Shown here piece after piece: positions 11,898 to 28,670 of a stretch of DNA of 64,000 nt. The notes beneath the pieces are model-generated. The model ran no database searches. It was not told the origin of the DNA and saw only the letters and a list, made by a program, of their open reading frames with translations. Source of the DNA: Acidimicrobiia bacterium (GTDB lineage Bacteria; Actinomycetota; Acidimicrobiia; Acidimicrobiales; Bin134); the NCBI GenBank assembly GCA_022827725.1, contig JAJEIJ010000005.1, positions 462-64,461 on the forward strand, read 5' to 3'. A program made the position numbers and the translations under genes. Positions within the stretch are counted from its first letter, which is position 1. Every line of letters begins with the position of its first letter.

Positions 11898-11898
11898 C

Positions 11899-12240
11899 AT
11901 GGGAAAGCAAGAATTTGAGTTCTTCGACCCCGACCTGATCCCCTGGGAACCCGAAGCCGGTATCGAAGGGCTCTACAGCAAAACCCTCTCGAGGGACCCG
12001 GACAGTGGGTCGTACACCAGGCTCTTGAAGTTCCTGCCCGGCACGGACACGTCGGCGGCCGGGGTGCAGCGCCACGACTTCTGGGAAGAGCTCTGGTTGG
12101 TTGAGGGTGCCATTCACGACCTGACGCTGGCCCAGACGTTCACCGCCGGAATGTACGCCTGCCGCCCGCCCGGCATGGCGCACGGACCGTGGGTCAGCCC
12201 CGGTGGGGCCATCACGTTCGAAGTCCGCAACTACGACTAG
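11899..12240 (+). CDS. Cupin-domain protein (ChrR-like)
   Basis: HDFWEE...YACRPPGMAHGPW cupin motifs. Confidence 0.8.
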   Translation: MGKQEFEFFDPDLIPWEPEAGIEGLYSKTLSRDPDSGSYTRLLKFLPGTDTSAAGVQRHDFWEELWLVEGAIHDLTLAQTFTAGMYACRPPGMAHGPWVSPGGAITFEVRNYD

Positions 12241-12259
12241 TGCGAGACAGGTAGAGGCG

Positions 12260-13120: not shown

Positions 13121-14046
13121 ACTGGCCGCAACTGCTCATCACCGTCGCGACGATCGGGTCGATCTTCGGCGTCGTCACCCTGGCACTCAACCTCCAATAC
13201 GCCCGAGGGGGGATGATCAACTTCGGGATCGTCGCGTACTTCGCGGTTGGCGCATACACCTACGCCATCATCACTCAGCCGCCCCCCAAAGGGCTCGACC
13301 AGTACGCGTTCGGCCTCGACTGGCCATGGTGGGCCGGGTTCCTACTGGCCGGTGTCGCCGCCCTTGGGTTTGCCGCGTTAACCGGCTGGCCGACGCTGCG
13401 GCTCAGAGGGGAGTACCTCGCGCTCACCACCTTCGCATTTGCCGAGGTGTTCCACTCATTCCTGCTGAACGAGCGGCGTATTGGCAACGGCACCGTCGGC
13501 CTGTCCAATGTGCATCGGCCGTTCGGCGACTGGGGGCCGATCGAGGAGAAGTACGTGTTCGCTGGCGCCGCTGCCCTCCTGTTGATCGTAACCCTCGCAG
13601 CGTTCCGACAGCTGCTCGCCTCTCCCTACGGGCGGGCCCTCGACGCCATCCGCGACGACGAGGTCGCCGCCCAGTCGTCCGGCAAGCCCTCAGCAGACAT
13701 GCGCCGCCAGGTGTTCTTGATCTCGGCGGTTCCCGTCGGACTCGCCGGCGCCGTGTACGCAATGTTCACCACCCTCGCGCAGCCGTCGCTGTTCACCGCC
13801 GAAGTCACCTTCATCGTGTGGATCGCGCTAGTGCTTGGCGGGGAGAGATCGGTGTACGGAGCCATGCTCGGCGCGTTCGGCCTGGTGTTCTTCGAAGAAG
13901 TGGTGCGCGCCTTGCCGTTCGAGACGGTCCGCTCCGCGCAGATCGCAGCATCTGTCGAGCACATCATCACCGGCGTGCTGTTCATTGCAGTGCTCCGCTA
14001 CCAGCCGTTCGACCGTATCCAGCGGAAAGTCAGGGCGAGTACATGA
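13117..14046 (+). CDS. Branched-chain amino acid-type ABC permease (LivM-like)
   Basis: LNLQY..GGMINFG, LRLRGEYLALTT, SPYGRALDAIRDDE. ATGA overlap with the upstream gene. Confidence 0.88.
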   Translation: MNWPQLLITVATIGSIFGVVTLALNLQYARGGMINFGIVAYFAVGAYTYAIITQPPPKGLDQYAFGLDWPWWAGFLLAGVAALGFAALTGWPTLRLRGEYLALTTFAFAEVFHSFLLNERRIGNGTVGLSNVHRPFGDWGPIEEKYVFAGAAALLLIVTLAAFRQLLASPYGRALDAIRDDEVAAQSSGKPSADMRRQVFLISAVPVGLAGAVYAMFTTLAQPSLFTAEVTFIVWIALVLGGERSVYGAMLGAFGLVFFEEVVRALPFETVRSAQIAASVEHIITGVLFIAVLRYQPFDRIQRKVRAST

Positions 14047-14849
14047 CCGGCCGCGACCACACCCGCGTCCCGACACAGCTGGGGCCGCTGCTGGAGGTGA
14101 ATGGCGTATCAAAGCGGTTCGCCGGTATCCAGGCGCTCGGCGGCGACGACGGGCTCAGCTTCCAGATCGACCGAGGCTCGTTCGTCGGCCTCATCGGACC
14201 CAACGGGGCCGGCAAGTCGACTCTCTTCAACCTGCTTACAGGGGTGCTGCCCGCCGACGCCGGCACGATCGTGTTCGAGGGGAACGACATCACCGCCGAC
14301 AGCTCCCATCAGAGGGCCGAGCACGGCATCGGCCGCACATTCCAGACACCCCGCACGTTCGAATCGCTGACGGTGCTCGACAACGTAGTCGTAGGCGCGA
14401 CCAGCCCTGGCGAGAGGCTCCGATCGGCGCTCGGCCGCAAATGGCGCCGCCACGAGGCTGGCCTCGTCGAGCAAGCCCGCGACATCCTGGGCCAAGTCGG
14501 GCTGGCCGATCGGGCCTCTGAGCCTGTCGGCGACCTGTCCGGCGGCGAGCTCCGGATGCTCGGAGTAGCCCGTCAGCTGATCCGCCGCCCCACTCTGCTG
14601 CTGCTTGACGAGCCCACCGCCGGCGTACACCCCCTCCTCCAAGACCGGCTTGCTGACCTCCTCACAGGACTCCACCGCCAAGGTATGACCCTGGTTGTCG
14701 TCGAACACAACCTCCACTTCCTGCTGGCCATCGCCGAGCACATCCTCGTTTTGACCCAAGGTCGGCTCCTCGCCGAAGGGCCCCCGTCGTACATCCGCGG
14801 CGATCCGGCCGTCATCTCCGCTTATTTGGGAGAAGACCATGCAGCTTGA
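14043..14849 (+). CDS. ABC ATP-binding protein (LivG-like)
   Basis: GPNGAGKST, LSGGE, LLLDEP, VISAYLG. Confidence 0.9.
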   Translation: MTGRDHTRVPTQLGPLLEVNGVSKRFAGIQALGGDDGLSFQIDRGSFVGLIGPNGAGKSTLFNLLTGVLPADAGTIVFEGNDITADSSHQRAEHGIGRTFQTPRTFESLTVLDNVVVGATSPGERLRSALGRKWRRHEAGLVEQARDILGQVGLADRASEPVGDLSGGELRMLGVARQLIRRPTLLLLDEPTAGVHPLLQDRLADLLTGLHRQGMTLVVVEHNLHFLLAIAEHILVLTQGRLLAEGPPSYIRGDPAVISAYLGEDHAA

Positions 14850-15588
14850 AGCGGCCGGGCTGGTCTCGGGTTACGGCAAAGTCACTGTGCTCCACGGAGT
14901 CGACCTCAAGGTCTCTGCTGGCGAGATCGTCGTCGTGCTGGGCCCGAACGGGGCCGGCAAGACCACCCTCATGAAGACCATCGCCGGACATCTCCCCGCG
15001 ACCGGCGGCTCAGTCACGCTCGACGACGACAACATCGCAGGGCTCGCCCCCCAGCAGATAGCCCGCCGAGGCGTCGGATACGTCCCCCAGGACCACAACG
15101 TGTTCCGCGAGCTCACCGTTCGCGACAACCTGCGGGTCGCATCGTTGGCATTCCCCGGCGCCGCTGCCCGTACCGATGCCGTCTTCGACCGGTTCCCCAT
15201 CCTCGCTGATAGGGCTAACCAGCGGGCCTCCACCCTCTCAGGCGGCGAGCGGCAAACCCTCGCCGTGTCGTGCGCAATGATCGCCGAGCCCAAGGTGCTG
15301 CTGTTAGATGAGCCGACCGCGGGGCTCGCCCCCCTGTTTGTCGCCCACATGGTCGAATGGGTCAGCGAGCTCGCAGCCGCAGGTATGGCCGTCGTCTGGG
15401 TCGTCGAGCAGAGTCCGGAGAAAATCCTCGCCGCGTCTACCAGGGCGTGCCTGCTTGAAGGCGGGAGGAGCACCGCCGAGCTCGACAGCAGAGAACTGCT
15501 CGAACCGGGCCGTCTCCAAGAGCTGCTCCTCGAGGGCCGAGAAGAAGTCGAAAGACCTCCACACAACAACCCGAAAAGAAGCAATTGA
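14839..15588 (+). CDS. ABC ATP-binding protein (LivF-like)
   Basis: GPNGAGKTT, LSGGERQ, LLLDEPTAGLAP. Confidence 0.9.
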   Translation: MQLEAAGLVSGYGKVTVLHGVDLKVSAGEIVVVLGPNGAGKTTLMKTIAGHLPATGGSVTLDDDNIAGLAPQQIARRGVGYVPQDHNVFRELTVRDNLRVASLAFPGAAARTDAVFDRFPILADRANQRASTLSGGERQTLAVSCAMIAEPKVLLLDEPTAGLAPLFVAHMVEWVSELAAAGMAVVWVVEQSPEKILAASTRACLLEGGRSTAELDSRELLEPGRLQELLLEGREEVERPPHNNPKRSN

Positions 15589-15654
15589 CGTCAAGTCAGC
15601 TACCCAGAGAAAGGAAATGACGTGGAGTCAACCCCCACCAAGAGAGGAACCAAA

Positions 15655-17007
15655 ATGAAACGGACAACGCCCAGATGGCTGCGGCTCGTCGCGGCCATGC
15701 TCGCGCTGGCTGTGATCGCAGCGGCGTGCGGCAACGACGACGACGGAGACGGCCCTGCCGCCCCCGCCGACCAAGCCGCGCCCGAAGCGACTGCCGCAGC
15801 CCCCGAAGCGACCGATGGGGCAACGGCCCCCGAGCCGACCGAGGCACCCGATGCGTCTGAAGGCGGGGAACCCGTTGATGAGCCCGGCGAGGTCACCATC
15901 GGCGTGCTTGTGCCCCTCACTGGCGAGCTCGGCGAGTTTGGCAAGATCGTTGCCGACGCCATCGAGTTCGGCGTAGGGGAGATCAACGCGGCCGGCGGCA
16001 CCGTGTGCGGCGATATCCGCACTGTTGTCGCAGACACCGGCGGCGACCCCGAGACCGGCATCAGAGAGGCGACGAACATGATCGAGAGCGAGGGTGCAAT
16101 CGCCATCTTGGGCCCGACGTCGGGGATCATGGTCGCTCTGGTCGACCTGGCCAAGCGGGAGGAAGTGGTCATCATGTCGCCCTACGCGGGGACGATCACC
16201 CTCAACGAGCTCGGCGGCGACTTTGTCTACCGGACTGTGTCGTCCGACCTCGGCGACGGTGCCGCTTCGGGCCTGTGGCTCTCCACCAGGGGCTACGGAT
16301 CGGTCGCGTTCATGGTTCAGAACGAGGAATCCACCATCTCCCCGGCCGAGGTGGCCAGGACCGAGGTGGAGGAAGCCGGGATCGACATCACCGACTTCGT
16401 CGTCTACAACCCAGGCCAGCCGTCCTACCAGGCCGAACTGACCTCGGTGCTCGCTAGCGACCCTGACGCGATCTTCTTGGCCGGCGGCCAGGAATCCGGT
16501 GTCACCCTCATCAAGGAAGCAGTCGCCGGCGGGTTCGACGGGGAGTGGCTGTTCACCGCCGACCTGGCCGTGCCCGAGATCTTTGACGCCGTCGGCGCCG
16601 AACTGATCAACGACAAGGCCTTCGTCGAGTTCGCTGACGCCGATCCGTCCCTGCCCGAGTTCATCTCATTCGAGGAGCGGTATCCCGGCGCAGGCGCGCC
16701 GTTCGCGCCCAACTCATTCGACATGGTCACCTTGGTGGCCCTGTCCCTTGAGGCCAGCGGACAATGCGACGGAGCGGGCATCAACTCGGTCATCCGTGGT
16801 GTGTCCGACGGCGGTAGCCCGGTGTCGACCTTCGCTGAGGGCCGCGACGCCCTAGCCGCCGGAGACGACATCAACTACGAAGGCGCCTCCGGGCCGCTTG
16901 TGTTCGATCCATCCGGAACCGTCTCTGGCGCTTACACCATCCAGCAGGCGCAGAACGGCGAATGGGTCAACGTCGAGTTCTACCCCGCGTCAACGTTCGT
17001 CGAATAG
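15655..17007 (+). CDS. ABC substrate-binding lipoprotein (LivJ/K type)
   Basis: Lipobox IAAAC, A/P/E-rich linker, IGVLVPLTG, INYEGASG. Confidence 0.88.
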   Translation: MKRTTPRWLRLVAAMLALAVIAAACGNDDDGDGPAAPADQAAPEATAAAPEATDGATAPEPTEAPDASEGGEPVDEPGEVTIGVLVPLTGELGEFGKIVADAIEFGVGEINAAGGTVCGDIRTVVADTGGDPETGIREATNMIESEGAIAILGPTSGIMVALVDLAKREEVVIMSPYAGTITLNELGGDFVYRTVSSDLGDGAASGLWLSTRGYGSVAFMVQNEESTISPAEVARTEVEEAGIDITDFVVYNPGQPSYQAELTSVLASDPDAIFLAGGQESGVTLIKEAVAGGFDGEWLFTADLAVPEIFDAVGAELINDKAFVEFADADPSLPEFISFEERYPGAGAPFAPNSFDMVTLVALSLEASGQCDGAGINSVIRGVSDGGSPVSTFAEGRDALAAGDDINYEGASGPLVFDPSGTVSGAYTIQQAQNGEWVNVEFYPASTFVE

Positions 17008-17289: not shown

Positions 17290-18156
17290 CTAGTCGGGGG
17301 GCAGGAAGGTGTCGGTTTCGGCCCAGAGCGCCTCCAAGCGGTCGATGCGTTGCTGGGCATCGTCTCGGGTGATGGCGGCGACTTCGGCGACTATGAGCTC
17401 GGCGACGACGACCGCGGGGACGGAGCTGTCGAATGGGCCGACGGCGGGGACCGACAGCTGGCACAGCACGTCCGCCATGGCGGCCAGTGGGGATAGCGGG
17501 CTGTCGGTGACCGCGGCGATGGGAACGCCGAGATTGGCCAGCGCTCGGGTGGCTGCGACTGAGGAGCGGCGGTAGCGGTAGAAGTCGATGGCGATGCCCA
17601 AGTCGTTCGGCCCGGCACCCGCCAGGCTGCTTGCCGCCGATTGTTCGTCGAGCAGGTGCACCCGAGGGCGGATCATTGACAGGCCGCTGCGCAGCGCGTG
17701 GGCGCCGGCCTGAGAGGTCTCTCCGGACACTATCCACACCGCCTCCGCGGCTGCCGTCCGCTCGGCGATGGCTTTGGTCTCCCCGCGGGCCGCAGACTCG
17801 GTGGCCGACTCGAAGGCGGCGGCAAGCTTGTCCAAGTCGGTCGGCTGTCCGGAAGGGGCCCGGCGGATGCGGTCGCGGGGGCGGGTTAGGGCGTCCTCAA
17901 CCCTCCGGCGGGCCACGTCTTGCAAAGCCGCGTAGCTGTCGAGCCCCAATTTGGTGGCGAAGCGGGCGATTGACGGGCGGCTGGTGCCGATGCGGTCGGC
18001 CAGGTCCGAGACCGTCCCGAAAGCCAGCAGCGTCGGCTCGGCAACCACTTCTTCGGCGATTCGCCGCTCGGTCGGGGTCAGATCCTCGCCAGCCCTGGCG
18101 ACCAGCTCGGCCACCGTCATCGGCGGAGTGGGATCTGCGTCCGCCTCAGATGCCAT
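17290..18156 (-). CDS. MurR/RpiR family transcriptional regulator
   Basis: LTPTERRIAE...TSRPSIARFATKLG HTH and SIS domain (AVTDSPLSPL). Divergent from the aminomutase operon. Confidence 0.88.
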   Translation of the reverse strand: MASEADADPTPPMTVAELVARAGEDLTPTERRIAEEVVAEPTLLAFGTVSDLADRIGTSRPSIARFATKLGLDSYAALQDVARRRVEDALTRPRDRIRRAPSGQPTDLDKLAAAFESATESAARGETKAIAERTAAAEAVWIVSGETSQAGAHALRSGLSMIRPRVHLLDEQSAASSLAGAGPNDLGIAIDFYRYRRSSVAATRALANLGVPIAAVTDSPLSPLAAMADVLCQLSVPAVGPFDSSVPAVVVAELIVAEVAAITRDDAQQRIDRLEALWAETDTFLPPD

Positions 18157-18184
18157 AACTACCCCTTCCCGGCGTGCAATTGAA

Positions 18185-18200
18185 TGTACAATATAGTACA
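18185..18200. promoter_or_regulatory. Putative RpiR operator TGTAC-N6-GTACA
   Basis: TGTACAATATAGTACA inverted repeat in the AT-rich divergent promoter, next to TGGTATAAAT. Confidence 0.55.
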
Positions 18201-18286
18201 ATTATGGTATAAATCTGTTCACTAGCGAACACTAGCTGGTGAGCGGCCCGACAGGGAGACAATCCGAGCGGAGGTCAGAGCACACC

Positions 18287-19726
18287 ATGGCAAAGGCAAA
18301 ATACGAGCCGGCCGAACGGGAGCGGCTGGTTCTCGACACGGTCGAGAACCCCCGATACGACCGCGAGATCCTCAACGGCCTCGACCCGTTCATCAGCGGC
18401 ACCGCCCCTGAGGACATGCGCGGATTCTACAGCTCCTCGGAAATCGAGCGGCTGCTCCATATCAAAGACACCGACCGGGACATCGAATCCCGCATGCCGG
18501 TCAAGATCACCCGCCACTTCTTCGAGATGGCCAAGAACAGCCCCTCCCTCCAGAAGCTCGTCAAGGCGTCGCCCGATGAGACGCTCAACCTGGACGGCGC
18601 GGAGGATCCCGGAAACCAGATGGACTACAGCCCCGTCGAGGGCCTCATCCACAAGTACGAGATGGGCCTCCTATACGTGATCTCGACGTGCTCAGCGCAC
18701 TGCCGGTTCTGCTACAGGGAAGAGCTGATTGCCCGCAAGCCCGTTGAGCGCCACGACGGCACGGTCGAGAAGAAGGGCCTCGCCCAGGTGCTCGAGGTCA
18801 CCGACTACATACGGGCCCACAACGCCGCAGTCGCGGCCAACGGGGGCCGGCACCCCGAGACCGGCCGGGAGAAGCTCCGCGAGATCCTCCTGTCGGGCGG
18901 CGACCCGATGGTTCTGCCCAACAGCAAGCTGGCCGCCTGGTTCACCGCCCTGGCTGAAGCAGGAGTGGAGGCAATCCGGCTCGGCACCAAGGAACTGGCC
19001 TTCTACCCCGACCGGTTCGACAGCGCCTTCTTGGACATGATGGACCACTTCCACGACACCTACCCGGACGTCGGTTTTCGGTTGATGACCCACTTCAACC
19101 ACCCCGACGAGCTTCTGGTCAAAGACCAAGACGGTAACTACATCGAGGACGGCAACGGCTTCCTCGAGTGGAACCCCAGCACCCAGCGGGCCGTGGAAGC
19201 CGTCGTGTCCCGGGGGTGGATCAGCGTGGAGAACCAGTCGCCCATCATCAGAGGCGTCAACAACGACCCCGACGCGCTGCGAATCCTCCAGCGCACCCTG
19301 AAGCGGGTCGGCATCGAGAACCACTACTTCTTCTGCGGGCGCGACATCGTCGCCTACCGAGCGTTCAACGTGCCCATTGAGGACGCCTGGCAGATCCTCA
19401 ACGAATCCCAGAAAGGACTGTCCGGGGTGGAAGCCCACGCCCGCCTGTCGATCACCCACTACAAAGGCAAGACCGAGGTGTCCGCCGTTACCGATGAGCC
19501 CGTCCCGGGTCTTGCGGGAGCTGAGAACGGGGTCGTCGTCTTCAAGATCCTGCGCAGCGCCGCCGAAGCGCCCGACCGGGGGAAGGTGTGCATCGTGGGC
19601 CGCAACCCGAAGGCGCTGTGGTTCGACGACTACGAAGACCGGGTGCTGTTCGACGAGGCTGGCCTCTTCGACTACAACCGCGTTAAGCCGGTCGCTGCCG
19701 ACGAGCTCACCGCTATCCCGGCCTGA
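18287..19726 (+). CDS. KamA-family radical SAM/PLP amino-acid 2,3-aminomutase
   Basis: GLIHKY, CSAHCRFCYR (CxxxCxxC plus carboxylate-binding Arg), LLSGGDPM, IRLGTK, THFNHPDE, NQSPIIRGVN, candidate PLP lysine in YKGKT. Confidence 0.85.
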   Translation: MAKAKYEPAERERLVLDTVENPRYDREILNGLDPFISGTAPEDMRGFYSSSEIERLLHIKDTDRDIESRMPVKITRHFFEMAKNSPSLQKLVKASPDETLNLDGAEDPGNQMDYSPVEGLIHKYEMGLLYVISTCSAHCRFCYREELIARKPVERHDGTVEKKGLAQVLEVTDYIRAHNAAVAANGGRHPETGREKLREILLSGGDPMVLPNSKLAAWFTALAEAGVEAIRLGTKELAFYPDRFDSAFLDMMDHFHDTYPDVGFRLMTHFNHPDELLVKDQDGNYIEDGNGFLEWNPSTQRAVEAVVSRGWISVENQSPIIRGVNNDPDALRILQRTLKRVGIENHYFFCGRDIVAYRAFNVPIEDAWQILNESQKGLSGVEAHARLSITHYKGKTEVSAVTDEPVPGLAGAENGVVVFKILRSAAEAPDRGKVCIVGRNPKALWFDDYEDRVLFDEAGLFDYNRVKPVAADELTAIPA

Positions 19727-19740
19727 GCGAACGGGCCGGC

Positions 19741-20451
19741 GTGATCGACAAGCGGGTCGCCGACCCCGCCCAAGCCGTCGCCAGCATTGACGAAGGGTCA
19801 ACCGTCATGATCGGTGGGTTCGGCGAGGCGGGCAGCCCCATCGAGCTGATCCACGCCCTCATCGACCAGGGCTCTAGCGGGCTCACCGTCGTTAATAACA
19901 ACACCGGCACCGGCGAAGTCGGACTGGCTGCGCTTATCAGAGCCGGGCGGGTGGCCAAGATGATCTGCTCCTACCCCCGCAGCGCCAACTCGCGGGCGTT
20001 CCCCGACCTGTACCGGGCCGGGCGCATCCAACTCGAGCTGGTACCCCAGGGCACCCTCGCCGAGAGGATCCGAGCCGGCGGGGCCGGCATCCCCGCCTTC
20101 TACACCCCAACCGCCGTCGGCACCGAGCTTGAAGCTGGCAAAGAGCAGCGCGACTTCGACGGGCGACCCTGCCTGCTCGAGCGCGCCCTCACCGCCGATT
20201 TCGCGCTCATCAAAGCCCGGCGGGCCGACTGGCACGGCAACCTCGTGTACAACAAGACCGCCCGCAACTTCTCCCCCCTTATGGCCACCGCGGCCGTGAC
20301 CACCATCGTGCAGGCCGCCGCCGTTGACGCGCCCGGGACCATAGACCCCGAGACAGTTATCACCCCCGGCATCTACGTCGACCGAGTCGTTTGCATCCCC
20401 GACCCAGCCCACGAATCGAGGCTCGTCGCCCAGGGCGCCGCCTATCCATGA
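19741..20451 (+). CDS. pcaI: 3-oxoacid (3-oxoadipate-type) CoA-transferase subunit A
   Basis: MIDK, IGGFGEAG, NNTGTGEVGLAALI, ICSYPR, PQGTLAERIRAGGAGIPAFYT. Confidence 0.85.
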   Translation: MIDKRVADPAQAVASIDEGSTVMIGGFGEAGSPIELIHALIDQGSSGLTVVNNNTGTGEVGLAALIRAGRVAKMICSYPRSANSRAFPDLYRAGRIQLELVPQGTLAERIRAGGAGIPAFYTPTAVGTELEAGKEQRDFDGRPCLLERALTADFALIKARRADWHGNLVYNKTARNFSPLMATAAVTTIVQAAAVDAPGTIDPETVITPGIYVDRVVCIPDPAHESRLVAQGAAYP

Positions 20452-21164
20452 GCGCACCGGTGCCCATCAAGGGCCGCAGCAGGGACGAGATGGCCGCTCG
20501 GGCAGCTAAGGACATTCCCGACGGTGCCTACGTCAACCTGGGCATCGGGATGCCTGAACTGGTTGCCCAGCACATCCCGTCGGACCGTGAAGTTATCCTC
20601 CACACCGAAAATGGGCTGCTCGGCATGGGCCCGCCCCCCATGGGTACGGCTGCGGACCCCGAGTTGATAAACGCCGGCAAGCAGCCGGTCACCGCCATAG
20701 CGGGCGCATCGTACTTTCACCATGGCGACAGCTTCGCCATGATCCGAGGCGGCCACCTCGACTTCTGCGTGCTCGGAGCGCTTGAGGTGGCGGCGAACGG
20801 AGACCTCGCCAACTGGTCCACCGGTGAGCGAAACGCCATTCCTGCCGTCGGAGGGGCAATGGACCTCGTCTCAGGCGTGAAAAACGTGTTCGTGATGACC
20901 GCTCACTGCACCCGCGACGGAACGCCCAAACTCGTTGAGTCCTGCTCATACCCGATCACTGGGCGGGGCGCGGTCAGCCGCATCTACACCGACCTCGCCG
21001 TAATCGACATTGGGCCAGGGGGGTTTGAGCTCGTCGAGCTGGCCCCCGGAATCCGCCTCGATGACGTCGCCGCCCGCACCGCCGCCCCTATCTGTGACAA
21101 CCGGCCACCTCGGGAAACCGGGCCGGCTCAGGCGGCCCGCCCGCTGGGGAATGCCCATGGGTGA
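20448..21164 (+). CDS. pcaJ: 3-oxoacid CoA-transferase subunit B
   Basis: YVNLGIGMP, catalytic HTENG, SFAMIRGGH, GDLANW, PAVGGAMDL. Confidence 0.85.
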   Translation: MSAPVPIKGRSRDEMAARAAKDIPDGAYVNLGIGMPELVAQHIPSDREVILHTENGLLGMGPPPMGTAADPELINAGKQPVTAIAGASYFHHGDSFAMIRGGHLDFCVLGALEVAANGDLANWSTGERNAIPAVGGAMDLVSGVKNVFVMTAHCTRDGTPKLVESCSYPITGRGAVSRIYTDLAVIDIGPGGFELVELAPGIRLDDVAARTAAPICDNRPPRETGPAQAARPLGNAHG

Positions 21165-22470
21165 GCCCGACGGCACTCCTATCTCTCGCTCCCTGTACGA
21201 GCGGGCCGTGCGGGTAATGCCTGGCGGAGCCAGCCGCAACAGCGCCATCCGCGAGCCCCACCCCCTCTACGCGGCCCGAGCCGACGGGTGCCGCATCACC
21301 GATGTCGACGGCGCAGAGCGGATCGACTTCGCCAACAACATGGCCTCTCTCATCCACGGCCACGCTCACCCCGCCATCGTTTCCGCCGTCGCGAACCAAC
21401 TCCGAAAAGGCACCGCGTCCACACTCTCAACCGAGGTGGAGGTGCGATTCGCCGAGCACCTCTGCTCCCGCAACCCCAATTTCGAGAAGGTCCGATTCGC
21501 CAACTCCGGCACCGAAGCGGTCATGGGCGCACTCAAAGCCGCTCGGGCCTTCACCGGGCGGACCAAGGTCGCCAAAGCCGAAGGGGCCTACCACGGCCTC
21601 TATGACTACGCCGAAGTCAGCCAGACCGCCCGACCTTCTAACTGGGGTGACCTCGACAGCCCGGCATCGGTTCCCGTCGCCCACGGCACCCCGCAGCCCG
21701 TCCTTGACGACGTCGTTGTCATCCCTTACAACGACCCGGAACGGGCCGTCGCCATCCTCGATCGCCACGCTGACGAGATTGCATGTGTCCTGTTGGACGT
21801 CATGCCCCACTGGGCCGGCCTGTGCCCCGCCACCCCCGCTTACGCCTCCGCTCTGCAACGATGGGTGGGCCACAACGGTGCCCTACTGGTGGCTGACGAG
21901 GTCATCACCTTCAGGAACTCCTACGGCGGAGCCCAGCAGCAATACGGCCTGGCTCCCGATATCACCGCCATGGGCAAGATCATCGGCGGTGGGTTCCCAG
22001 TCGGAGCCATCGCCGGGCGGGCCCACATCATGGAGATGATGAACCCCCTAGGCGACAGTTACCTGCTGCCCTACTCCGGTACATTCTCCGCCAATCCCGT
22101 CACCATGACCGCCGGGCTGACCGCCATGGAGCTCTACGACCAGGCTCAAATCGACCACGTCAACCGCCTCGCGGAACTCGCTGTCGGTGCCATCAACGAC
22201 ACCATCAAGACTTTGGGCGCTCCCGCCAGCGTCACCGGTGCCGGTTCCATGTTCCGAATCCACATGCGCGCCGACCCGCCCGCCAACCACCGCGAGACCC
22301 ACTCCGACCCCGTGACAGCCGAACGGCTCAAACAGTTCTATAACAGAATGCTCGACTGCGGGATCCTGCTCATATACAGCGGCGCCGGAGCCATCTCCAC
22401 CCCGATGGGCGAAGCAGAGATCGACCAGCTCGTCGCCGCCGTCGATACATCCCTAGCCGCCCTCCGATGA
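21157..22470 (+). CDS. Class III PLP aminotransferase (HemL-like, beta-amino-acid aminotransferase type)
   Basis: MPGGASR, IHGH, NSGTEA, GAYHG, DEVIT, MGKIIGGGFPVG, SGTFSANP. Confidence 0.85.
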   Translation: MGEPDGTPISRSLYERAVRVMPGGASRNSAIREPHPLYAARADGCRITDVDGAERIDFANNMASLIHGHAHPAIVSAVANQLRKGTASTLSTEVEVRFAEHLCSRNPNFEKVRFANSGTEAVMGALKAARAFTGRTKVAKAEGAYHGLYDYAEVSQTARPSNWGDLDSPASVPVAHGTPQPVLDDVVVIPYNDPERAVAILDRHADEIACVLLDVMPHWAGLCPATPAYASALQRWVGHNGALLVADEVITFRNSYGGAQQQYGLAPDITAMGKIIGGGFPVGAIAGRAHIMEMMNPLGDSYLLPYSGTFSANPVTMTAGLTAMELYDQAQIDHVNRLAELAVGAINDTIKTLGAPASVTGAGSMFRIHMRADPPANHRETHSDPVTAERLKQFYNRMLDCGILLIYSGAGAISTPMGEAEIDQLVAAVDTSLAALR

Positions 22471-22521
22471 GCCGCCCTGAAACCTGCCGCTTGGCGGCGG
22501 CGCAGCGAGGAACCTGCGCCA

Positions 22522-23706
22522 ATGCGTGACGTGTACATCGCCGATGCGGTCCGCACCCCGATCGGCAAGATCGGCGGTGCCCTCGCCGGCACACGCCCCG
22601 ACGACCTCGCAGCCTCCGCCATCGCTGGGCTGCTCGCCCGCAGTCCCAGCCTCGACCCCGCCCACATCGGCGACGTGTGCTTTGGCAACGGCAACGGCGC
22701 CGGCGAGGAGAACCGCAACGTCGCCCGTATGGCGCTGCTGCTAGCCGGCGTACCCCCCGCCGTACCTGGCGTTACTGTAAACCGGCTCTGCGGGTCAGGG
22801 CTCGAAGCTGCCGTCATGGCCAGCCGGGAGATCGCCGTCGGCGACGCCGACATCTGCATCGCCGGAGGCGTCGAATCCATGAGCCGCGCCCCATGGGTCG
22901 TCCCCAAACCGGAGCGGCCCTACGAACGCGGCCACCAGCAGATGCACTCCACCACCCTCGGCTGGCGGCTCGTCAATCCCCGCCACCCCCCAGAATGGAC
23001 GATCCCCCTCGGTGAGGGCGCCGAGATCCTTGCCGACCAATGCGCCATCACCCGCCAAGAGCAGGATCAATTCGCCTGCCAAAGCCACCAAAGGGCACAC
23101 GAGGCCTGGTCTACCGGGAAATTCGAAGCAGAAATCGTCCCAGTCGACGGAGTTGACCTCGCCGTCGACGAATCCGTCCGCCCCGACACCAAAATCGAAG
23201 CGCTCGCCGGGCTGAGCCCCGCCTTCTGCCATGAGGGGACGGTCACTGCCGGCAATTCGTCGCCGATGAACGACGGCGCAGCCGCCGTTCTCTTGGCCTC
23301 CGACGCCGGGATGCAGCGCATGGGCCGGGAGCCGCTCGCCCGTATTGCGGCCCGGGCCGTATCCGGTGTCGAGCCCCACCTGTACGGAATCGGACCCGTA
23401 GTAGCCGCCGAGACCGCCCTCCATTGGGCCGGTATCGGCTGGGGCGACCTGTCCGCGGTCGAGCTCAATGAGGCATTCGCAGCCCAAGCTCTCGCCTGTA
23501 TGCGCCTATGGCCTGACCTCGACCCGACCATCGTCAACCCCAATGGCGGGGCGATCGCCATCGGACACCCCATTGGCGCATCCGGCGCTCGGATCCTCGC
23601 CACCCTTGCCCACCAGTTGCACCGCAGCCGGGGCCGCTACGGCATGGCCGCCCTGTGCATCGGCGTCGGCCAAGGCATCGCCGTCGTCATAGAGCGGCTC
23701 TCGTGA
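22522..23706 (+). CDS. pcaF: 3-oxoadipyl-CoA thiolase (PcaF/PaaJ-like)
   Basis: RPDDLAA, GAGEENRNVARM, NRLCGSG, GVESMSRAP, NEAFA, GHPIG, LCIGVGQG. Confidence 0.8.
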   Translation: MRDVYIADAVRTPIGKIGGALAGTRPDDLAASAIAGLLARSPSLDPAHIGDVCFGNGNGAGEENRNVARMALLLAGVPPAVPGVTVNRLCGSGLEAAVMASREIAVGDADICIAGGVESMSRAPWVVPKPERPYERGHQQMHSTTLGWRLVNPRHPPEWTIPLGEGAEILADQCAITRQEQDQFACQSHQRAHEAWSTGKFEAEIVPVDGVDLAVDESVRPDTKIEALAGLSPAFCHEGTVTAGNSSPMNDGAAAVLLASDAGMQRMGREPLARIAARAVSGVEPHLYGIGPVVAAETALHWAGIGWGDLSAVELNEAFAAQALACMRLWPDLDPTIVNPNGGAIAIGHPIGASGARILATLAHQLHRSRGRYGMAALCIGVGQGIAVVIERLS

Positions 23707-23712: not shown

Positions 23713-24129
23713 TCACTTCGATGGGTCGACTATCTGTACCTCACGAGTTTGTTTGCACCAGTCCTGAATAGCCCGATCCGCGGTGACTAGTTCATGGCGA
23801 CCCAGAATGGCTGTTGCAACGATGGTCTGATCGTCAGGGTCGCTGTGAAAGCCCGAGTCCATCAGCGACACACCGCGAATCGCTATTTTTCCAGTGACCG
23901 GGAGCTCGTGTAGCCCTGTTGCCAGCTGCCTCTCATGCCAGAGGTCCGGGGCGGTGCCTAGGTTGATGACGCCCTTGCGATGCAGTCTCGCCACCTCGGT
24001 GAATGTGACCACCGACACGGCGAGGTTTCCCTCGGCGAGGGAGTTGTCGAGCAACCGTCTCGTGCGAGGTCCGATTTGGTGTCCGTCTTTCAGTCCCCAG
24101 AGCAGGACATGGGTATCGAGGAGTATCAC
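23713..24129 (-). CDS. vapC: VapC (PIN) toxin
   Basis: ILLDTHVLLW, HSDPDDQTIVATA, LVTAD. Confidence 0.88.
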   Translation of the reverse strand: MILLDTHVLLWGLKDGHQIGPRTRRLLDNSLAEGNLAVSVVTFTEVARLHRKGVINLGTAPDLWHERQLATGLHELPVTGKIAIRGVSLMDSGFHSDPDDQTIVATAILGRHELVTADRAIQDWCKQTREVQIVDPSK

Positions 24130-24419
24130 CGAATCGCAGGCAATGTTGGATCGACTACACGTTCAGGATTGCTGATCGATTCCCAGTCTTCTGATGAGGC
24201 TGAAGGGCCCATGATGTCGCCAAGGATTTCAAGTTCGGGGCACGAGCCGATGAATCGAGCCTCTTCACGGGGCGCTGGCACGATTTTTACCACCGGCTGG
24301 CCGTGCTTGGTGACGATGACAGCCTCGCCAGTGCGATCCACTTCGTCCATGATTCGCAGGCAGTTGTCCCGGAACCGTCCCGCAGGAATAGTAGGCGGTT
24401 TAGAGGATTCTGCTGGCAT
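24126..24419 (-). CDS. Phd/YefM family antitoxin
   Basis: IPAGRFRDNCLRIMDEV...VIVTKHGQPVVKIVP. Overlaps the vapC start. Confidence 0.85.
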   Translation of the reverse strand: MPAESSKPPTIPAGRFRDNCLRIMDEVDRTGEAVIVTKHGQPVVKIVPAPREEARFIGSCPELEILGDIMGPSASSEDWESISNPERVVDPTLPAIR

Positions 24420-24480
24420 GCTGCCACCATTTCTTGAAGAATTGCCATAGAAGTATAGCCACAATTTGCTCAGTCTAAGT

Positions 24481-25536
24481 CTAGTTTTCGATGCGGTCGA
24501 TGAGGCCCCAGGCCAGGGCGGTGGTGGTGTCGATCTCGGTGTTGGTGAGGGCGAAGTAGCAGAGGCGCTGGCGGCCGATGCGGCGGGCGATACTGACGGT
24601 GCCGCCCGCGCCGGGCACCAGGCCCATGGCCACCTCGGGCAGCCGGAAGCTGGTGTCGGGGTGGGCGGACACGTCGTGGGCATAGGCGGGCAGTTCCACG
24701 CCCGCCCCCACGCAGGTGCCGTGGACCTTCACCCGGGTCTTGGCCGCCAAGCGGTCGATCCAAAAGGCGGCGCTGCGCACCGAGCGGACGCGGTGGGCGG
24801 TGCCCGGGTCGGGGGTGGTGCCGAACTCGGCCAGGTCGCCGCCGGAGCAGAAGGTGGGCCCGGCGCCGTCGAGCACAATGCCATCCAGGCTGGGGTCGGC
24901 CCACGCGGCCCGGAGCTGCTCCACCAGTCCATCGCGCATTTCGGCGCTGAAGGCGTTGTGGCGTTCTGGCCGGTTGAGGGTGAGCCGCAGGGTGGAATCG
25001 GTGCGCTCGGCTTGCACTGCGGGCTCGGGGTTGTTGGGCACAAGCCGGGAGGGCTGGCTGGCCAGCCAGCCTTGAAACTGAGGGCCGGACTGAAGGGTGG
25101 AGTAGGCCAGCGACTCGGCCACCAGCCCGTCGGCGGTGGTTTGGCCTTCGCTCAGGCGCAGCAGTTGCACCAGAGCCACCGTCGCGGCCGGCGAGGCGAT
25201 GGCAGCGGCGGTGATCTGATCAATCTCGTCGGCAGGCACGGCTACTGGGATGGGGAGATCGCCGGGGGCCAGCACGATGTCGAAGGCGGCGCAGTGCTCG
25301 GCCAGCTTCGGAGCATCGGCGGGGTCGAGATCGGCGGGCACCGAGGCTGCCATCACTGCCGGGGTACTCCTGATCAGGCTGGCCGCCTCTTCGCTAGGCC
25401 ATTGCGAGATGTCGGCAGCGGTGAGCTCAACGAGCATTACCGGGCAGTCAGCCAGACCCAAGTCCTCCCCGGCATAGGGGTGGGACAGGAGTTCGAGGGC
25501 CTCAGCCAGGCCCGTGGTCTGGATTGGCGCAGCCAT
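24481..25536 (-). CDS. Enoyl-CoA hydratase/isomerase family protein with N-terminal extension
   Basis: LNRPERHNA, FCSGGDL, GAGVEL, LPEVAMGLVPGAGGT. Confidence 0.85.
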   Translation of the reverse strand: MAAPIQTTGLAEALELLSHPYAGEDLGLADCPVMLVELTAADISQWPSEEAASLIRSTPAVMAASVPADLDPADAPKLAEHCAAFDIVLAPGDLPIPVAVPADEIDQITAAAIASPAATVALVQLLRLSEGQTTADGLVAESLAYSTLQSGPQFQGWLASQPSRLVPNNPEPAVQAERTDSTLRLTLNRPERHNAFSAEMRDGLVEQLRAAWADPSLDGIVLDGAGPTFCSGGDLAEFGTTPDPGTAHRVRSVRSAAFWIDRLAAKTRVKVHGTCVGAGVELPAYAHDVSAHPDTSFRLPEVAMGLVPGAGGTVSIARRIGRQRLCYFALTNTEIDTTTALAWGLIDRIEN

Positions 25537-25569
25537 TACTGAGTGACCGCAGACTAGCGCGGGAGGGAA

Positions 25570-27069
25570 TCAGCGGCTTTCGGCCAGTTCTTCGCGCAAG
25601 ATCCGGCGCAGGAGCTTGCCGGTCTCGTTGTAGGGAAGTTCATCACGCAGCTCGATGCGATCAGGGGTGCGCGACGACCGCATCTGGGACTTCACGAACT
25701 CTTGCAATTCGGCAATATCAACCGCTTGACCCTTGGCCGCCACCACCACCGCAGCCACCGCCTCCCCCCACTGCTCGTCGGGCACGCCGACGGCGGCGGC
25801 GTCGGCCACCGACGGGTGGCTCAGCAGCACGTCCTCGATCTCGCCGGGGGAGATGTTCTCGCCGCCCCGCACGATGATGTCGTCGATGCGGCCTTCCACG
25901 TACAGGTAGCCGTCGGCGTCGAGAGAACCCCCGTCGTTGGTGGGGAACCAGCCGTCGGGGGTCACCCGGGAGTTCCGCCCCAGGTACTCGCCGGAAACCT
26001 GCTCGCCCCGCACCCAGATCTCACCGGAAGTGCCGGTGGCCACCGGGTTGCCCTCCTCGTCGCGGATGTCCACCTCGATGGCGGGCAACGGTTGGCCTGC
26101 CGAGCCCAGCCGGGCTCGCACGGCGGGATCGTCGGAGCGATGGGCCTCGCGGTGTTCCTCGGGGCCGAGCACCGCCACGGTGGAGCTGGTCTCGGTCAGG
26201 CCGTAGGCGTTCACGAAGTTGGTTTCGGGCAGCACGTCGAGGGCCCGGGCGATGACCGGGGCGGGCATCTTGCCGCCCCCGTAAGACAGGGCCCGCAGCG
26301 TGGGGAGCCCGCCTCCGACGTCCTCCAAGTGGTCCACGATGCGGGCCAGCATGGTGGGCACCACCATGGCGTGGGTGACCGCTTCGGCCCGGACCAGGTT
26401 CACCCAGTCGGCGGGGTCGAAGTTGGGCAGTTGCACGATGCGGCGCCCGGCGTACACCGAGCTCAAAATCGCGGCCATGCCAGCCACGTGGTAGGGCGGC
26501 ACCGACACCAGGGTGGCCTCGTCCTCGGCCGCCCCCATGAACTCCACCGAGCCGATGATGTATGACACCAGGTGCCGGTGGCGCAGCACCGCGGCCTTGG
26601 GAGCGCCGGTGGTGCCGCTGGTGTATAGGAGGATGGCGATTTCGTCGGGGTCCACGTTCCAATCGCTGTCGGGCGCGCCTCCCTCGGCCCACTGAGCCAA
26701 GAAGTCGGGCCGCACAACGGCCTGCACCCCGTCGAGGTCGCCGATGGCGGCCACCGCGTCGTCGTTGCACACCGTGACCGATGGAGCGACCTCGGCGGCC
26801 AGATGGCGCAGCTCGGGAACGGTCAGCCGATAGTTGAGGGGGACGAACGGCACCCCGGCCCAGGCCGAGCCGAACAGGGCGATGGGCAGAGCCTCGCTGC
26901 TCACGTCCACCATGCTGACCCGGTCGATTCCCGCTTCGCGGAAGCGCACGGCAGTGGCCCCGGCGCGCTGGAAGAGCTGCTCGTAGGTGATACCCCGCCC
27001 TTGGGATCCGACCGCGGTGCGGTCGCCGAACCCGCTGGACGCCATCTCCAGCAGCATCATCAGATTCAT
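25570..27069 (-). CDS. Acyl-CoA synthetase (AMP-binding)
   Basis: YTSGTTGAPK, YGLTET, RGGENISP, TGK. Confidence 0.9.
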   Translation of the reverse strand: MNLMMLLEMASSGFGDRTAVGSQGRGITYEQLFQRAGATAVRFREAGIDRVSMVDVSSEALPIALFGSAWAGVPFVPLNYRLTVPELRHLAAEVAPSVTVCNDDAVAAIGDLDGVQAVVRPDFLAQWAEGGAPDSDWNVDPDEIAILLYTSGTTGAPKAAVLRHRHLVSYIIGSVEFMGAAEDEATLVSVPPYHVAGMAAILSSVYAGRRIVQLPNFDPADWVNLVRAEAVTHAMVVPTMLARIVDHLEDVGGGLPTLRALSYGGGKMPAPVIARALDVLPETNFVNAYGLTETSSTVAVLGPEEHREAHRSDDPAVRARLGSAGQPLPAIEVDIRDEEGNPVATGTSGEIWVRGEQVSGEYLGRNSRVTPDGWFPTNDGGSLDADGYLYVEGRIDDIIVRGGENISPGEIEDVLLSHPSVADAAAVGVPDEQWGEAVAAVVVAAKGQAVDIAELQEFVKSQMRSSRTPDRIELRDELPYNETGKLLRRILREELAESR

Positions 27070-27114
27070 GGGTCCATTCCGACTGACGATCCTGCTAGCG
27101 GCGCTATGGCCCGA

Positions 27115-27420
27115 CTAGTCGGAGGCGGGGAGGGGCTTGGCCTCTTTCAGGCTGAGGGCGGTGCCTCCCAGCGCCAAAGAGCCGTCTCCCGGTTTGGTAC
27201 ACAAAACCTCGAGTGACTCGTCTTCGTTCACATAGCGCTTGCCCAGAGCGGTGCCATCGGCAGCGCTGGCGGCAACCTCGCCATTGCGCTCCGCGTCGGC
27301 CGGATCGGCCATCGGCGAGCCGCCACAAGTGATGTCCACGTCGCCGCTCGGTGCTTTGACCACGATGAGCTCGGTATCGCATACCGAGCTCTTGAGGCGG
27401 CTACCCGGTTTCAGGTCCAT
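27115..27420 (-). CDS. Small conserved hypothetical protein (Cys-containing)
   Basis: MDLKPGSRLKSSVCDTE...CGG...LGKRY...LCTKPG. RBS GGAGG. First gene of the ligase/hydratase operon. Confidence 0.75.
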   Translation of the reverse strand: MDLKPGSRLKSSVCDTELIVVKAPSGDVDITCGGSPMADPADAERNGEVAASAADGTALGKRYVNEDESLEVLCTKPGDGSLALGGTALSLKEAKPLPASD

Positions 27421-27488
27421 CCCTACCTCCCGAAAGATGTCCTCCAATCTTTTCCCGTCAGACTCAACAGGTACAAACTGCGTTAGTG

Positions 27489-28670
27489 ATGGAGTCAACC
27501 TTGAGCGGCCGCCATCCGGCGCTGGTTTGGGCCGAGTCGGGCCTGATGGGCCTGAGCGGACCCGAGCACGGGCCTCCGGCGGTGGCCTCTGGGCGCTGGG
27601 TGGAGCGGCTCGACGGGGTGGTGAGCGACATCTCGGGGCTGTGCGGCCAGCCGCTGAGGACGGAGGCTGCCGGCTTTCTGGGAGAGCGGGCGGCACTGGT
27701 GGGGCGAGCTCGGCGGGGCTCTGTGTCAGTGGGGGGCGCATGCCGCATGGTGGCGGCAGCCGACGGCGTGTTGGCAGTATCACTGGCCCGCACCAGCGAC
27801 ACCGAAGCGGTTCCCGCCTGGTTGGAGTTGGATGGTTCCGACGACGACATATGGGCCGCAGTGGCCGCGGGGGTGCGAAAACGGCCGGTGGCCGAATTAG
27901 TGGAGCGGGCCGAATGGCTGGGTTTGGCAGTGGGGGAGGTGGTCAGGCCGCCACCGCCGGAGGAGCCGTGCCGGTTTGCCGACGCCGGGCTGGTCGGGCC
28001 CGACCGAAAACAGGTGCTGGACGTGAGCTCGCTTTGGGCTGGGCCGCTGTGCGCCTCGCTGCTGGGCGGCTTCGGATTCGAGGTGCTGAAGGTAGAGGCA
28101 CCAGGCCGCCCCGACGGCGCCCGATATGGCTCGCCAGCGTTCTACGAGCGGTTGAACCAGGGCAAGAAGGAAACGGTCATCGACCTGGGGTCCGAGGACG
28201 GTCGCCGCCGGTTCCAGGATCTGTGCCGGGAATCGGCCGTGGTGGTCGACGGCTTGCGGCCCCGGGTGTGGGCCAACTGGGGTATCCACCCCCAGGAGGT
28301 GGCCGAGAGCGCCGGGCTCGTGTGGGTGTCGATCTCCGGCCACGGCGACAACCGAGCCGGATTCGGCGACGACGCCGCGGTGAGCGGGGGCCTTTGGCTA
28401 CAAGACCCGGCTGGCGGACTGCCCTGGTTCGTCGGCGACGCGGCCGCTGACCCAATCGCCGGTTTGGTGGCGTGCCGAGCCGCAGCCCAGGCCCTGGCCG
28501 CAGGTCGGGCGGGACTAGCAGAAGTGGCCATGAGCCAAGCGGCGAGTTGGGTCAGAGCGGGCGACGACCTGAGCGTGGGCGATGCCGAGGTCTTCCGCCG
28601 CGGCGACCAATGGGTGGTGCGGGCCGACGGCGACGAACAAGAAGTGCTGGCCCCCCGCGGCGGGGTCTGA
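27489..28670 (+). CDS. CaiB/BaiF family III CoA-transferase
   Basis: VLDVSSLWAGPLC, KVE...RPDGAR, LNQGK, GFGDDAA, VGDAAADP. Confidence 0.8.
   Translation: MESTLSGRHPALVWAESGLMGLSGPEHGPPAVASGRWVERLDGVVSDISGLCGQPLRTEAAGFLGERAALVGRARRGSVSVGGACRMVAAADGVLAVSLARTSDTEAVPAWLELDGSDDDIWAAVAAGVRKRPVAELVERAEWLGLAVGEVVRPPPPEEPCRFADAGLVGPDRKQVLDVSSLWAGPLCASLLGGFGFEVLKVEAPGRPDGARYGSPAFYERLNQGKKETVIDLGSEDGRRRFQDLCRESAVVVDGLRPRVWANWGIHPQEVAESAGLVWVSISGHGDNRAGFGDDAAVSGGLWLQDPAGGLPWFVGDAAADPIAGLVACRAAAQALAAGRAGLAEVAMSQAASWVRAGDDLSVGDAEVFRRGDQWVVRADGDEQEVLAPRGGV

Follow-up and report, generated by a model that had tools for sequence, protein, structure and literature searches.

A conserved KamA-like operon in an Acidimicrobiia bacterium: a candidate catabolic route for an acidic alpha-amino acid, possibly L-2-aminoadipate

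Introduction

Radical S-adenosylmethionine (SAM) enzymes of the KamA family convert alpha-amino acids into beta-amino acids. In lysine fermentation, the aminomutase KamA works together with KamDE, Kdd, Kce and Kal, and the route is completed by AtoAD and a thiolase. A glutamate 2,3-aminomutase has reportedly been described by Ruzicka and Frey in 2007, and a methanogen enzyme of this kind by Tunckanat in 2022. Beta-amino acids are in turn the substrates of GSAM-like beta-transaminases, which give beta-keto acids, and one such acid, 3-oxoadipate, is split into succinyl-CoA and acetyl-CoA by PcaIJ and PcaF in the lower beta-ketoadipate pathway. The present work concerns a locus in which these enzyme families, all already known, are brought together, and where their specificity and combination into a pathway would be new. 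It lies in a stretch of 64,000 nucleotides (the window) of the Acidimicrobiia bacterium assembly GCA_022827725.1 (contig JAJEIJ010000005.1, positions 462 to 64,461 of the forward strand), and comprises genes for a KamA-like radical-SAM protein, named KamAL here, two CoA-transferase subunits, an aminotransferase and a thiolase, divergent from a regulator gene. Judged from its sequences, this operon would serve to break down an acidic alpha-amino acid. L-2-aminoadipate is the likeliest candidate, with a probability of about 50%.

The operon and its proposed route

The features of the locus are the following (window coordinates, strand, description):

17290-18156, minus strand, RpiR-family regulator with HTH_6 (36 bits) and SIS (35.5 bits) domains according to Pfam
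18157-18286, no strand, AT-rich divergent intergenic region of 130 bp between the RpiR gene and the operon
18287-19726, plus strand, KamA-like radical-SAM protein KamAL, 479 aa, motif CSAHCRFC, proposed 2-aminoadipate 2,3-aminomutase
19741-20451, plus strand, 3-oxoacid CoA-transferase subunit A, PcaI/ScoA type (TIGR02429, 328 bits, cutoff 128.5)
20448-21164, plus strand, 3-oxoacid CoA-transferase subunit B, PcaJ/ScoB type (TIGR02428, 288 bits, cutoff 243.6)
21157-22470, plus strand, GSAM-like class-III aminotransferase, ATG at 21157, proposed 3-aminoadipate (beta-amino acid) transaminase
22522-23706, plus strand, thiolase of the 3-oxoadipyl-CoA thiolase group (top model TIGR02430), accessory member of the cassette

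A 14-nt gap separates KamAL from PcaI, PcaI and PcaJ overlap by 4 nt, PcaJ and the aminotransferase by 8 nt, and the thiolase follows after 51 nt. Both these junctions and the profile scores bear out the initial annotation, which had recognized six genes here, with a tight operon divergent from the RpiR gene. The intergenic region is presumed to hold the promoters and the operator, and no strong or convincing inverted repeat or operator repeat was found within it.

In the proposed route, KamAL would shift the amino group of L-2-aminoadipate from C2 to C3, the resulting 3-aminoadipate would be converted into 3-oxoadipate by the GSAM-like beta-transaminase, and the PcaIJ-type CoA-transferase would produce 3-oxoadipyl-CoA, to be cleaved into succinyl-CoA and acetyl-CoA by a 3-oxoadipyl-CoA-type thiolase (part of the operon in the window; most relatives would encode it at another place in their genome). 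The divergent RpiR protein would regulate the operon. Gene identities, linkage, residue patterns and co-occurrence are the observations, and from them the substrate and all of the reactions are predicted. The succession of an alpha-to-beta aminomutase, a beta-transaminase, a 3-oxoacid CoA-transferase and a thiolase is well supported by linkage and is probably correct.

A role in an aromatic pathway was rejected, as pcaH and pcaD are absent: the protocatechuate dioxygenase beta subunit (pcaH) had no match in the window's whole genome, which is 94.8% complete, nor in any of the five other cassette carriers (0/5), and the best match to the enol-lactonase pcaD reached 79 bits against a cutoff of 256, leaving no true pcaD in the window's genome. 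This check covered pcaH and pcaD, and no search for catA was made; within that scope, the lack of ring-cleavage genes noticed earlier in the window extends to the whole genome, where PcaIJ is moreover single-copy.

Conservation of the cassette across phyla

KamAL homologues amount to more than 2,586 proteins, the best 120 being all at least 74% identical, and 85 clusters reach E<=1e-30 after clustering at 50%. Among the best 120 matches listed, the 19 with a source name are labelled either 'hypothetical protein' or 'lysine 2,3-aminomutase'. Its distribution within groups is patchy: the gene was found in 6 of 201 genomes of the window's own class (Acidimicrobiia), in 6 of 121 genomes of one gammaproteobacterial order, and in 32/151 genomes sampled from one Planctomycetota class. 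KamAL identity is at least 70% between phyla, and the sequences suggest strong constraint together with horizontal spread.

Linkage was followed in 80 loci with flanks of up to 10 kb, taken from genomes that represent at least five phyla. PcaI and PcaJ adjoin KamAL in 47 of them, and an aminotransferase gene is present in all 43 untruncated PcaIJ-linked loci, the remaining four being cut by contig ends. It is orthologous to that of the window in 40 of the 47 (57-91% identity), while in three loci, from Woeseiaceae, Lysobacterales and Chromatiales metagenome-assembled genomes (MAGs), its place is taken by another GSAM-like aminotransferase (30-33% identity; hemL-type, 284 bits). An RpiR orthologue is adjacent and divergent in 38/47 PcaIJ-linked loci, as well as in six loci where KamAL is an orphan. 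The MAGs that contributed loci bear the labels Acidimicrobiia, Planctomycetota, Acidobacteriota, Woeseiaceae/Lysobacterales/Chromatiales and Krumholzibacteriia. Within the class sample, the five relatives all display the order RpiR-KamAL-PcaI-PcaJ-aminotransferase without a thiolase within about 10 kb, and aminotransferase orthologues (at least 59% identity) occur in exactly the 6 KamAL-positive genomes out of 201. Just seven of the 47 PcaIJ-linked loci have an adjacent thiolase gene. The conserved unit is thus made of four enzyme genes and a regulator, with the thiolase as an accessory. The five-gene route of the initial annotation has to be amended in this respect: the suggestion that KamAL would prove linked to PcaI, PcaJ and the aminotransferase held in several phyla (43/43), and the thiolase falls outside the core.

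KamAL: family, fold and residues

KamAL scores below the cutoffs of the NCBIfam models considered, whether for the KamA family (TIGR00238, 95.6 bits, cutoff 199.2), arginine (86/600), EpmB (82/369), lysine (79/525) or glutamate aminomutase (TIGR04368, 81 bits, cutoff 650), and Pfam yields nothing for it at E<=0.001. Nine distant KamA-family representatives are likewise under every equivalog cutoff, and none of the control genomes passes TIGR04368. The sole solved sequence relative is the lysine 2,3-aminomutase of Clostridium subterminale (2A5H), with an E-value of 1e-14 when KamAL alone is the query and of 1e-35 when a profile of 17 sequences is used. An AlphaFold (AF2) model of KamAL (pLDDT 86.3) also retrieves 2A5H as its best Foldseek match (E 4.6e-19, TM 0.58/0.67), the next radical-SAM folds following at about 3e-6.

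Three cysteines, C135/C139/C142, are invariant in two alignments (17/17 and 83/83 sequences), G204-G205-D206, N316/Q317, R352 and K395 are invariant across members down to 31% identity, and S203 of the LLSGGD motif is found in at least 90% of KamAL sequences. The invariant K395 lies in a G-K-T motif, and its equivalence with the PLP (pyridoxal phosphate)-binding lysine, taken here to be K337 of lysine aminomutase, amounts to motif matching since the hidden Markov model (HMM) alignment to 2A5H ends at 321. R144 aligns to Arg134 of lysine aminomutase, R352 to Asp293 (in its motif Q-C-D), and the region equivalent to that of Asp330 is devoid of Asp and reads S-I-T-H-Y-K-G-K. In lysine aminomutase, Asp293 and Asp330 presumably hold the epsilon-ammonium of lysine, and Arg134 its alpha-carboxylate. 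Because a basic residue occupies the Asp293 site, these sequences argue for a substrate with a distal anionic group, rather than lysine or arginine. Lysine specificity of KamAL was rejected on account of the invariant R352 in place of Asp293, and with the low lysine and EpmB scores this removes the possibility, considered at the outset, of a lysine-specific or EpmB-like enzyme.

Several other KamA-family genes were encountered along the way. The window's genome has a second, unrelated one (contig C17 of G000, L094:1060-2424, plus strand), encoding 454 aa with the motif CHAYCTYC; it is about 25-30% identical to KamAL, also has Arg at the lysine-aminomutase Asp293 position, and is preceded by a thiolase gene about 7 kb upstream. 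The KamAL homologue of a Planctomycetota genome (G359, C1:218702-220105) is interrupted by an in-frame TAG, which could reflect a pseudogene or a sequencing error. A subfamily 42-48% identical to KamAL, seen in two metagenome loci, has no cassette there (neither CoA-transferase nor aminotransferase beside the copy on contig L097), and its neighbours are a two-component system, TGT and an ATP-grasp protein. The L097 member is 42% identical to KamAL, and the adjoining divergent ATP-grasp gene is RimK-like (6875-7795, minus strand).

The enzymes predicted to act after KamAL

The two CoA-transferase subunits are above the cutoffs of the subfamily models pcaI_scoA and pcaJ_scoB, respectively, and the best PDB matches of the A subunit are SCOT A subunits. 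The aminotransferase reaches 334 bits with the hemL model, under its cutoff of 527; among solved structures it comes closest to 6K8H (388 bits) and ForI (354 bits), true GSAMs giving at most 238 bits and the beta-transaminases 2YKU and 4AO9 210 and 200 bits, respectively. 6K8H is the Sphaerobacter thermophilus transaminase (StoTA), which is reported to convert beta-homoalanine, beta-leucine, beta-phenylalanine as well as a gamma-amino acid; its R36 may bind the substrate carboxylate (PMC10589169). In the alignment with the 436-aa aminotransferase query (query start 21160), this R36 falls on residue 26.

The window thiolase has pcaF (TIGR02430) as its top model, with 473.5 bits for a cutoff of 597, and its best PDB match is 7VTR (556 bits), followed by a Thermus thiolase and by Pseudomonas PcaF (6PCA, 382). 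7VTR is Tfu_0875, reported to be a thiolase condensing acetyl-CoA with C2-C5 acyl-CoAs, most active with succinyl-CoA and used to make 3-oxoadipyl-CoA (PMC11061225). The PcaF-like and HemL-like labels first given to the thiolase and the aminotransferase need correcting in that both proteins remain below the curated cutoffs, pcaF being still the top model of the former.

The thiolases of other cassettes are more telling. Those of L081, L077 and L041, the three loci scored here (L082, L083, L013 and L014 were left out), obtain 666, 671 and 627 bits, so that 3/3 pass the pcaF equivalog cutoff, and they are only 48-52% identical to the window thiolase. From these sequences, it looks like two different lineages of 3-oxoadipyl-CoA-type thiolases were recruited independently to the same cassette. 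This dual recruitment is the strongest pointer to a C6 dicarboxylate.

Possible sources of 2-aminoadipate

L-piperideine-6-carboxylate (P6C) dehydrogenase makes 2-aminoadipate. In one cassette locus (L023), a gene for this enzyme (801 bits, cutoff 730) and a saccharopine-dehydrogenase-family gene, called as such by Pfam, lie directly upstream of the RpiR gene; the best full-length PDB match of the latter is 3ABI, presumably a lysine 6-dehydrogenase, and the same saccharopine-dehydrogenase-like gene is carried by L040. In two Planctomycetota genomes, P6C dehydrogenase is convergent with the cassette, 0.2 and 1.6 kb past the aminotransferase, and in L099, a search of the PDB with the 330-aa open reading frame (ORF) that separates the P6C dehydrogenase from the cassette found no relative. 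A 13-kb proximity seen in two genomes (G142, G038) was not counted as linkage, as an Opp-type transporter, a GntR regulator, a short-chain dehydrogenase/reductase (SDR), a thiamine pyrophosphate (TPP) enzyme and an amidase intervene.

P6C dehydrogenase also co-occurs with KamAL at the genome level: it was found in the 5/5 cassette genomes of family f24, in 10/10 from other lineages, in the 6/6 KamAL-positive genomes of the gammaproteobacterial order, and in 31/32 KamAL-positive Planctomycetota, where the exception is a fragmented 2.0-Mb genome, that is, in 52/53 of the other cassette or KamAL-positive genomes tested, window-type genomes aside. In most carriers, 2-aminoadipate would thus come from lysine catabolism via P6C dehydrogenase. 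HglS (PF07063), of the 2-oxoadipate route, is present in just 4/201 genomes of the class, all from one family. The context favours 2-aminoadipate over glutamate as the substrate because cassette thiolases elsewhere are PcaF equivalogs and because P6C dehydrogenase is both adjacent and co-occurring. The preference voiced in the initial annotation is strengthened to this extent, and it is weakened by the window's own genome, which is without P6C dehydrogenase, and by the orphans considered below.

What, then, would feed the operon in the window? Upstream of the cassette, a GntR gene divergent from a Mo-hydroxylase operon (window 5774-17007) was noted; the operon forms the module:

6613-7593, plus strand, FAD subunit of the Mo-hydroxylase (Pfam)
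7993-10437, plus strand, Mo subunit of the Mo-hydroxylase (Pfam)
10434-11897, plus strand, CN_hydrolase::DUF2848 fusion (Pfam; DUF2848 is FAH-like according to the Atlas)
up to 17007, plus strand, Liv-type ABC transporter (Pfam)
6613-17007, plus strand, possible feeder module as a whole, comprising all of the above (Pfam)

Module and cassette are colinear in 7-8 loci of sponge-type Acidimicrobiia (L013, L014, L018, L021 and L027-L030), without an RpiR gene in between in L021 and L028-L030. Its carriers are exactly the cassette genomes without P6C dehydrogenase, and in L023, a close relative in the tree, the P6C dehydrogenase pair takes the place of the module, from which we infer that the two are alternative feeder modules. 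The window's symbiont and its close relatives would then obtain 2-aminoadipate by uptake, possibly with processing by the transporter/hydrolase/Mo-hydroxylase module, whose substrate might, as a guess, be picolinate or a lactam giving 2-aminoadipate.

Orphan copies of KamAL

Not all KamAL genes belong to a cassette. In the KamAL tree, orphans form two basal clades, and six loci retaining RpiR only are nested beside the window's group. Orphan neighbours are housekeeping genes, such as those for phosphomannomutase, seryl-tRNA synthetase, FtsH, S-adenosylhomocysteine (SAH) hydrolase and IGPS. With a level of at least 90% required within each group, operon and orphan copies are told apart by six alignment positions alone, among which position 353, next to R352, is D in operon copies and N in orphans, and position 390 is T in the former and V in the latter. 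At position 388, S is present in 48/48 operon copies and replaced by T or A in orphans; this position stands seven residues before K395, where Asp330 falls by simple counting. From these residues, orphan KamAL proteins may differ in specificity from operon copies, and they weigh less against the pathway because the differences affect presumed specificity sites. The orphan loci (L015-L022, L031-L085) sit in sponge-symbiont Acidimicrobiia, and some genomes harbor both types (L017 with L027; L029 with L076).

Points against the proposal and alternative explanations

Several observations weigh against L-2-aminoadipate as the substrate, or against the pathway as a whole. They first concern the window's own genome, where P6C dehydrogenase is absent (E<=1e-100), as it is from the five other genomes of the same architecture (0/6 altogether), and where the saccharopine-dehydrogenase-like gene has no homologue. 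Elsewhere, P6C dehydrogenase is also common in some of the groups without the cassette: it occurs in 102/119 KamAL-negative Planctomycetota (E<=1e-180) and in 77/121 genomes of the gammaproteobacterial order (one of them, G236, unpublished). In Acidimicrobiia, 49/201 genomes are over the cutoff, including 9/9 of f24, the family holding all five positives. The pattern is 'necessary, not sufficient', and is discriminating only in Acidimicrobiia, where the positives are kin. Adjacency is rare as well, with 1/80 loci and 2/32 Planctomycetota genomes. As to the enzymes, conservation within the cassette does not extend to the thiolase, and Tfu_0875 is reported to accept malonyl-CoA too, so that a C5 substrate is possible (PMC11061225). 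The CoA-transferase models do not tell PcaIJ from ScoAB, and the solved relatives are of SCOT/Ato types only. The roles assigned to Asp293, Asp330 and Arg134 of lysine aminomutase are themselves presumed ones. Finally, KamAL is without PcaIJ partners in 33/80 loci (one of which, L030, is cut off), and among five complete or large orphan genomes, PcaI is missing in 4/5, and the aminotransferase orthologue and P6C dehydrogenase in all (0/5).

These points leave room for other readings. KamAL might be a glutamate 2,3-aminomutase of a new clade, converting L-glutamate into beta-glutamate and then, after transamination, 3-oxoglutarate, which would be activated and split into malonyl-CoA and acetyl-CoA, or decarboxylated to acetoacetate for a ScoAB-type transferase; the beta-glutamate made by orphan copies would serve as an osmolyte. 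With Arg at the Asp293 site, any distal carboxylate would fit, and the known glutamate aminomutase presumably has Lys there. Partnerless orphans in marine and sponge symbionts would fit the making of a solute, and glutamate 2,3-aminomutases that make osmolytes are on record in the literature. The absence of a thiolase from most cassettes, the acetoacetate transferases within the transferase family, and the reported use of malonyl-CoA by Tfu_0875 point the same way. Glutamate is nevertheless unlikely: KamAL stays at 81 bits for a TIGR04368 cutoff of 650, the linked thiolases of L081, L077 and L041 are PcaF equivalogs, and a glutamate route gives no rationale for P6C dehydrogenase being adjacent and co-occurring. 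Cells already possess direct routes for glutamate, and since orphans and operon copies diverge exactly at positions 353 and 388-390, the presumed specificity sites, they may not share a substrate. The same downstream logic could also serve another substrate altogether, such as leucine (through beta-leucine), 2-aminobutyrate (through 3-aminobutyrate and acetoacetate) or lysine (through beta-lysine). The closest solved transaminase is reported to take beta-leucine and 3-aminobutyrate, the transporter upstream in seven loci is of the Liv type, and the transferase family includes acetoacetate enzymes. This is rather improbable given that the invariant Arg replacing Asp293 speaks against lysine and arginine and suggests an anionic side chain, that PcaF-type thiolases indicate succinyl-CoA as a product, and that lysine, arginine and EpmB models are all far under their cutoffs.

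Two more distant possibilities relate to the direction and nature of the chemistry. KamAL might catalyze a radical-SAM reaction other than a 2,3-amino shift, its neighbours forming a ketone-body or acetoacetate utilisation unit, in agreement with a score under the KamA-family cutoff, no Pfam match at E<=0.001, and, compared with lysine aminomutase, an insertion and additional sequence at both the N- and the C-terminus. With the presumed PLP-lysine position, the SAM motif and the lysine-aminomutase fold all retained, and KamAL strictly linked to an enzyme of the beta-transaminase type, for which a beta-amino acid is required, this is very improbable. The route might instead run in the biosynthetic direction, from succinyl-CoA and acetyl-CoA to 3-oxoadipate, 3-aminoadipate and 2-aminoadipate, for lysine or a secondary metabolite; all four steps are reversible in principle, and Tfu_0875 is reported to be used in the condensing direction. 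This is hardly to be expected where control is of the RpiR type and an uptake system is linked, both suggesting catabolism, where the irreversible catabolic P6C dehydrogenase co-occurs with the cassette, and where the annotated neighbourhoods contain no lysine-biosynthetic, nonribosomal peptide synthetase (NRPS) or polyketide synthase (PKS) genes.

Genome context and neighbouring genes

The window stretch is found mainly in sponge metagenomes, and its KamAL is 98% identical to that of L013, a MAG labelled Candidatus Poriferisocius. Downstream of the operon, on the minus strand (window 24126-28670), lie an ORF containing a Phd/YefM antitoxin domain and the genes for an enoyl-CoA hydratase and for an AMP-forming acyl-CoA ligase, and a family III CoA-transferase gene follows the ligase on the plus strand. 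The ligase and the hydratase are kept only in the closest relatives, L013 and L014. The GC content of the window, about 0.66, falls to 0.53 at 54001-56000 and to 0.59-0.60 at 60001-64000, two stretches that may be foreign DNA.

Implications

Catabolism of L-2-aminoadipate, if it is indeed the function of the operon, would extend the radical-SAM/PLP 2,3-aminomutases, so far known for lysine, arginine and glutamate, by a fourth substrate class, and provide a short non-aromatic entry to the lower beta-ketoadipate pathway as well as a new fate for a lysine catabolite in widespread marine bacteria. A broader scenario is put forward tentatively. KamAL would be the first 2-aminoadipate 2,3-aminomutase, opening a new branch of lysine/aminoadipate catabolism, via 3-aminoadipate and 3-oxoadipate to succinyl-CoA and acetyl-CoA, that would have spread horizontally among marine Acidimicrobiia, Planctomycetota, Acidobacteriota and Gammaproteobacteria; in sponge symbionts unable to form aminoadipate themselves, the cassette would have become joined to a module for uptake and processing, and orphan copies would make a beta-amino acid for another purpose. 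Animals make 2-aminoadipate, and the operon may accordingly bear on sponge-symbiont nutrition. It would also supply the missing enzymatic link from lysine or 2-aminoadipate to 3-oxoadipyl-CoA, the entry point of engineered adipic-acid routes; enzymes deaminating lysine, beta-lysine or 2-aminoadipate towards adipate are described as not known in one report (PMC7241714). The literature search, from which subscription journals and supplements were excluded, yielded no work combining 3-aminoadipate with an aminomutase, nor any on an aminoadipate aminomutase; the lone match to 'beta-aminoadipic' was a title in a reference list, discarded as a probable misprint for alpha-aminoadipic acid.

Comparison with known systems

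How does this operon relate to the systems described so far? KamAL shares with KamA of C. subterminale (2A5H) the CxxxCxxC and LLSGGD motifs, the N-Q pair, an Arg where the alpha-carboxylate would be bound and a Lys at the presumed PLP position, and differs from it in an identity of about 20% only, in R352 standing for Asp293, in an insertion at about 278-300, and in its N- and C-terminal regions. With glutamate 2,3-aminomutase it has in common the superfamily and, presumably, a basic residue that replaces the lysine-binding Asp and would bind the distal carboxylate; this residue is Arg in KamAL and, we assume, Lys in the glutamate enzyme, and the gene context is different.

At the level of the route, the resemblance to lysine fermentation lies in the radical-SAM 2,3-aminomutase acting at the start and the CoA-transferase and thiolase at the end. 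The aminomutase, in contrast, is not of the lysine type, a transaminase replaces the dehydrogenase and cleavage-enzyme steps, and no kamDE-, kdd- or kce-like gene is present among the annotated genes of the window. The aminotransferase keeps the carboxylate-binding Arg of the GSAM-like beta-transaminases (StoTA 6K8H, Mesorhizobium 2YKU, Variovorax 4AO9), whose described substrates are aromatic and aliphatic beta-amino acids, whereas a beta-amino dicarboxylate is predicted for the window enzyme. The last steps match the PcaIJ and PcaF part of the beta-ketoadipate pathway, with transferase models passed and the cassette thiolases of three other lineages passing pcaF, and the proposed entry into this pathway would be an amino acid instead of an aromatic compound.

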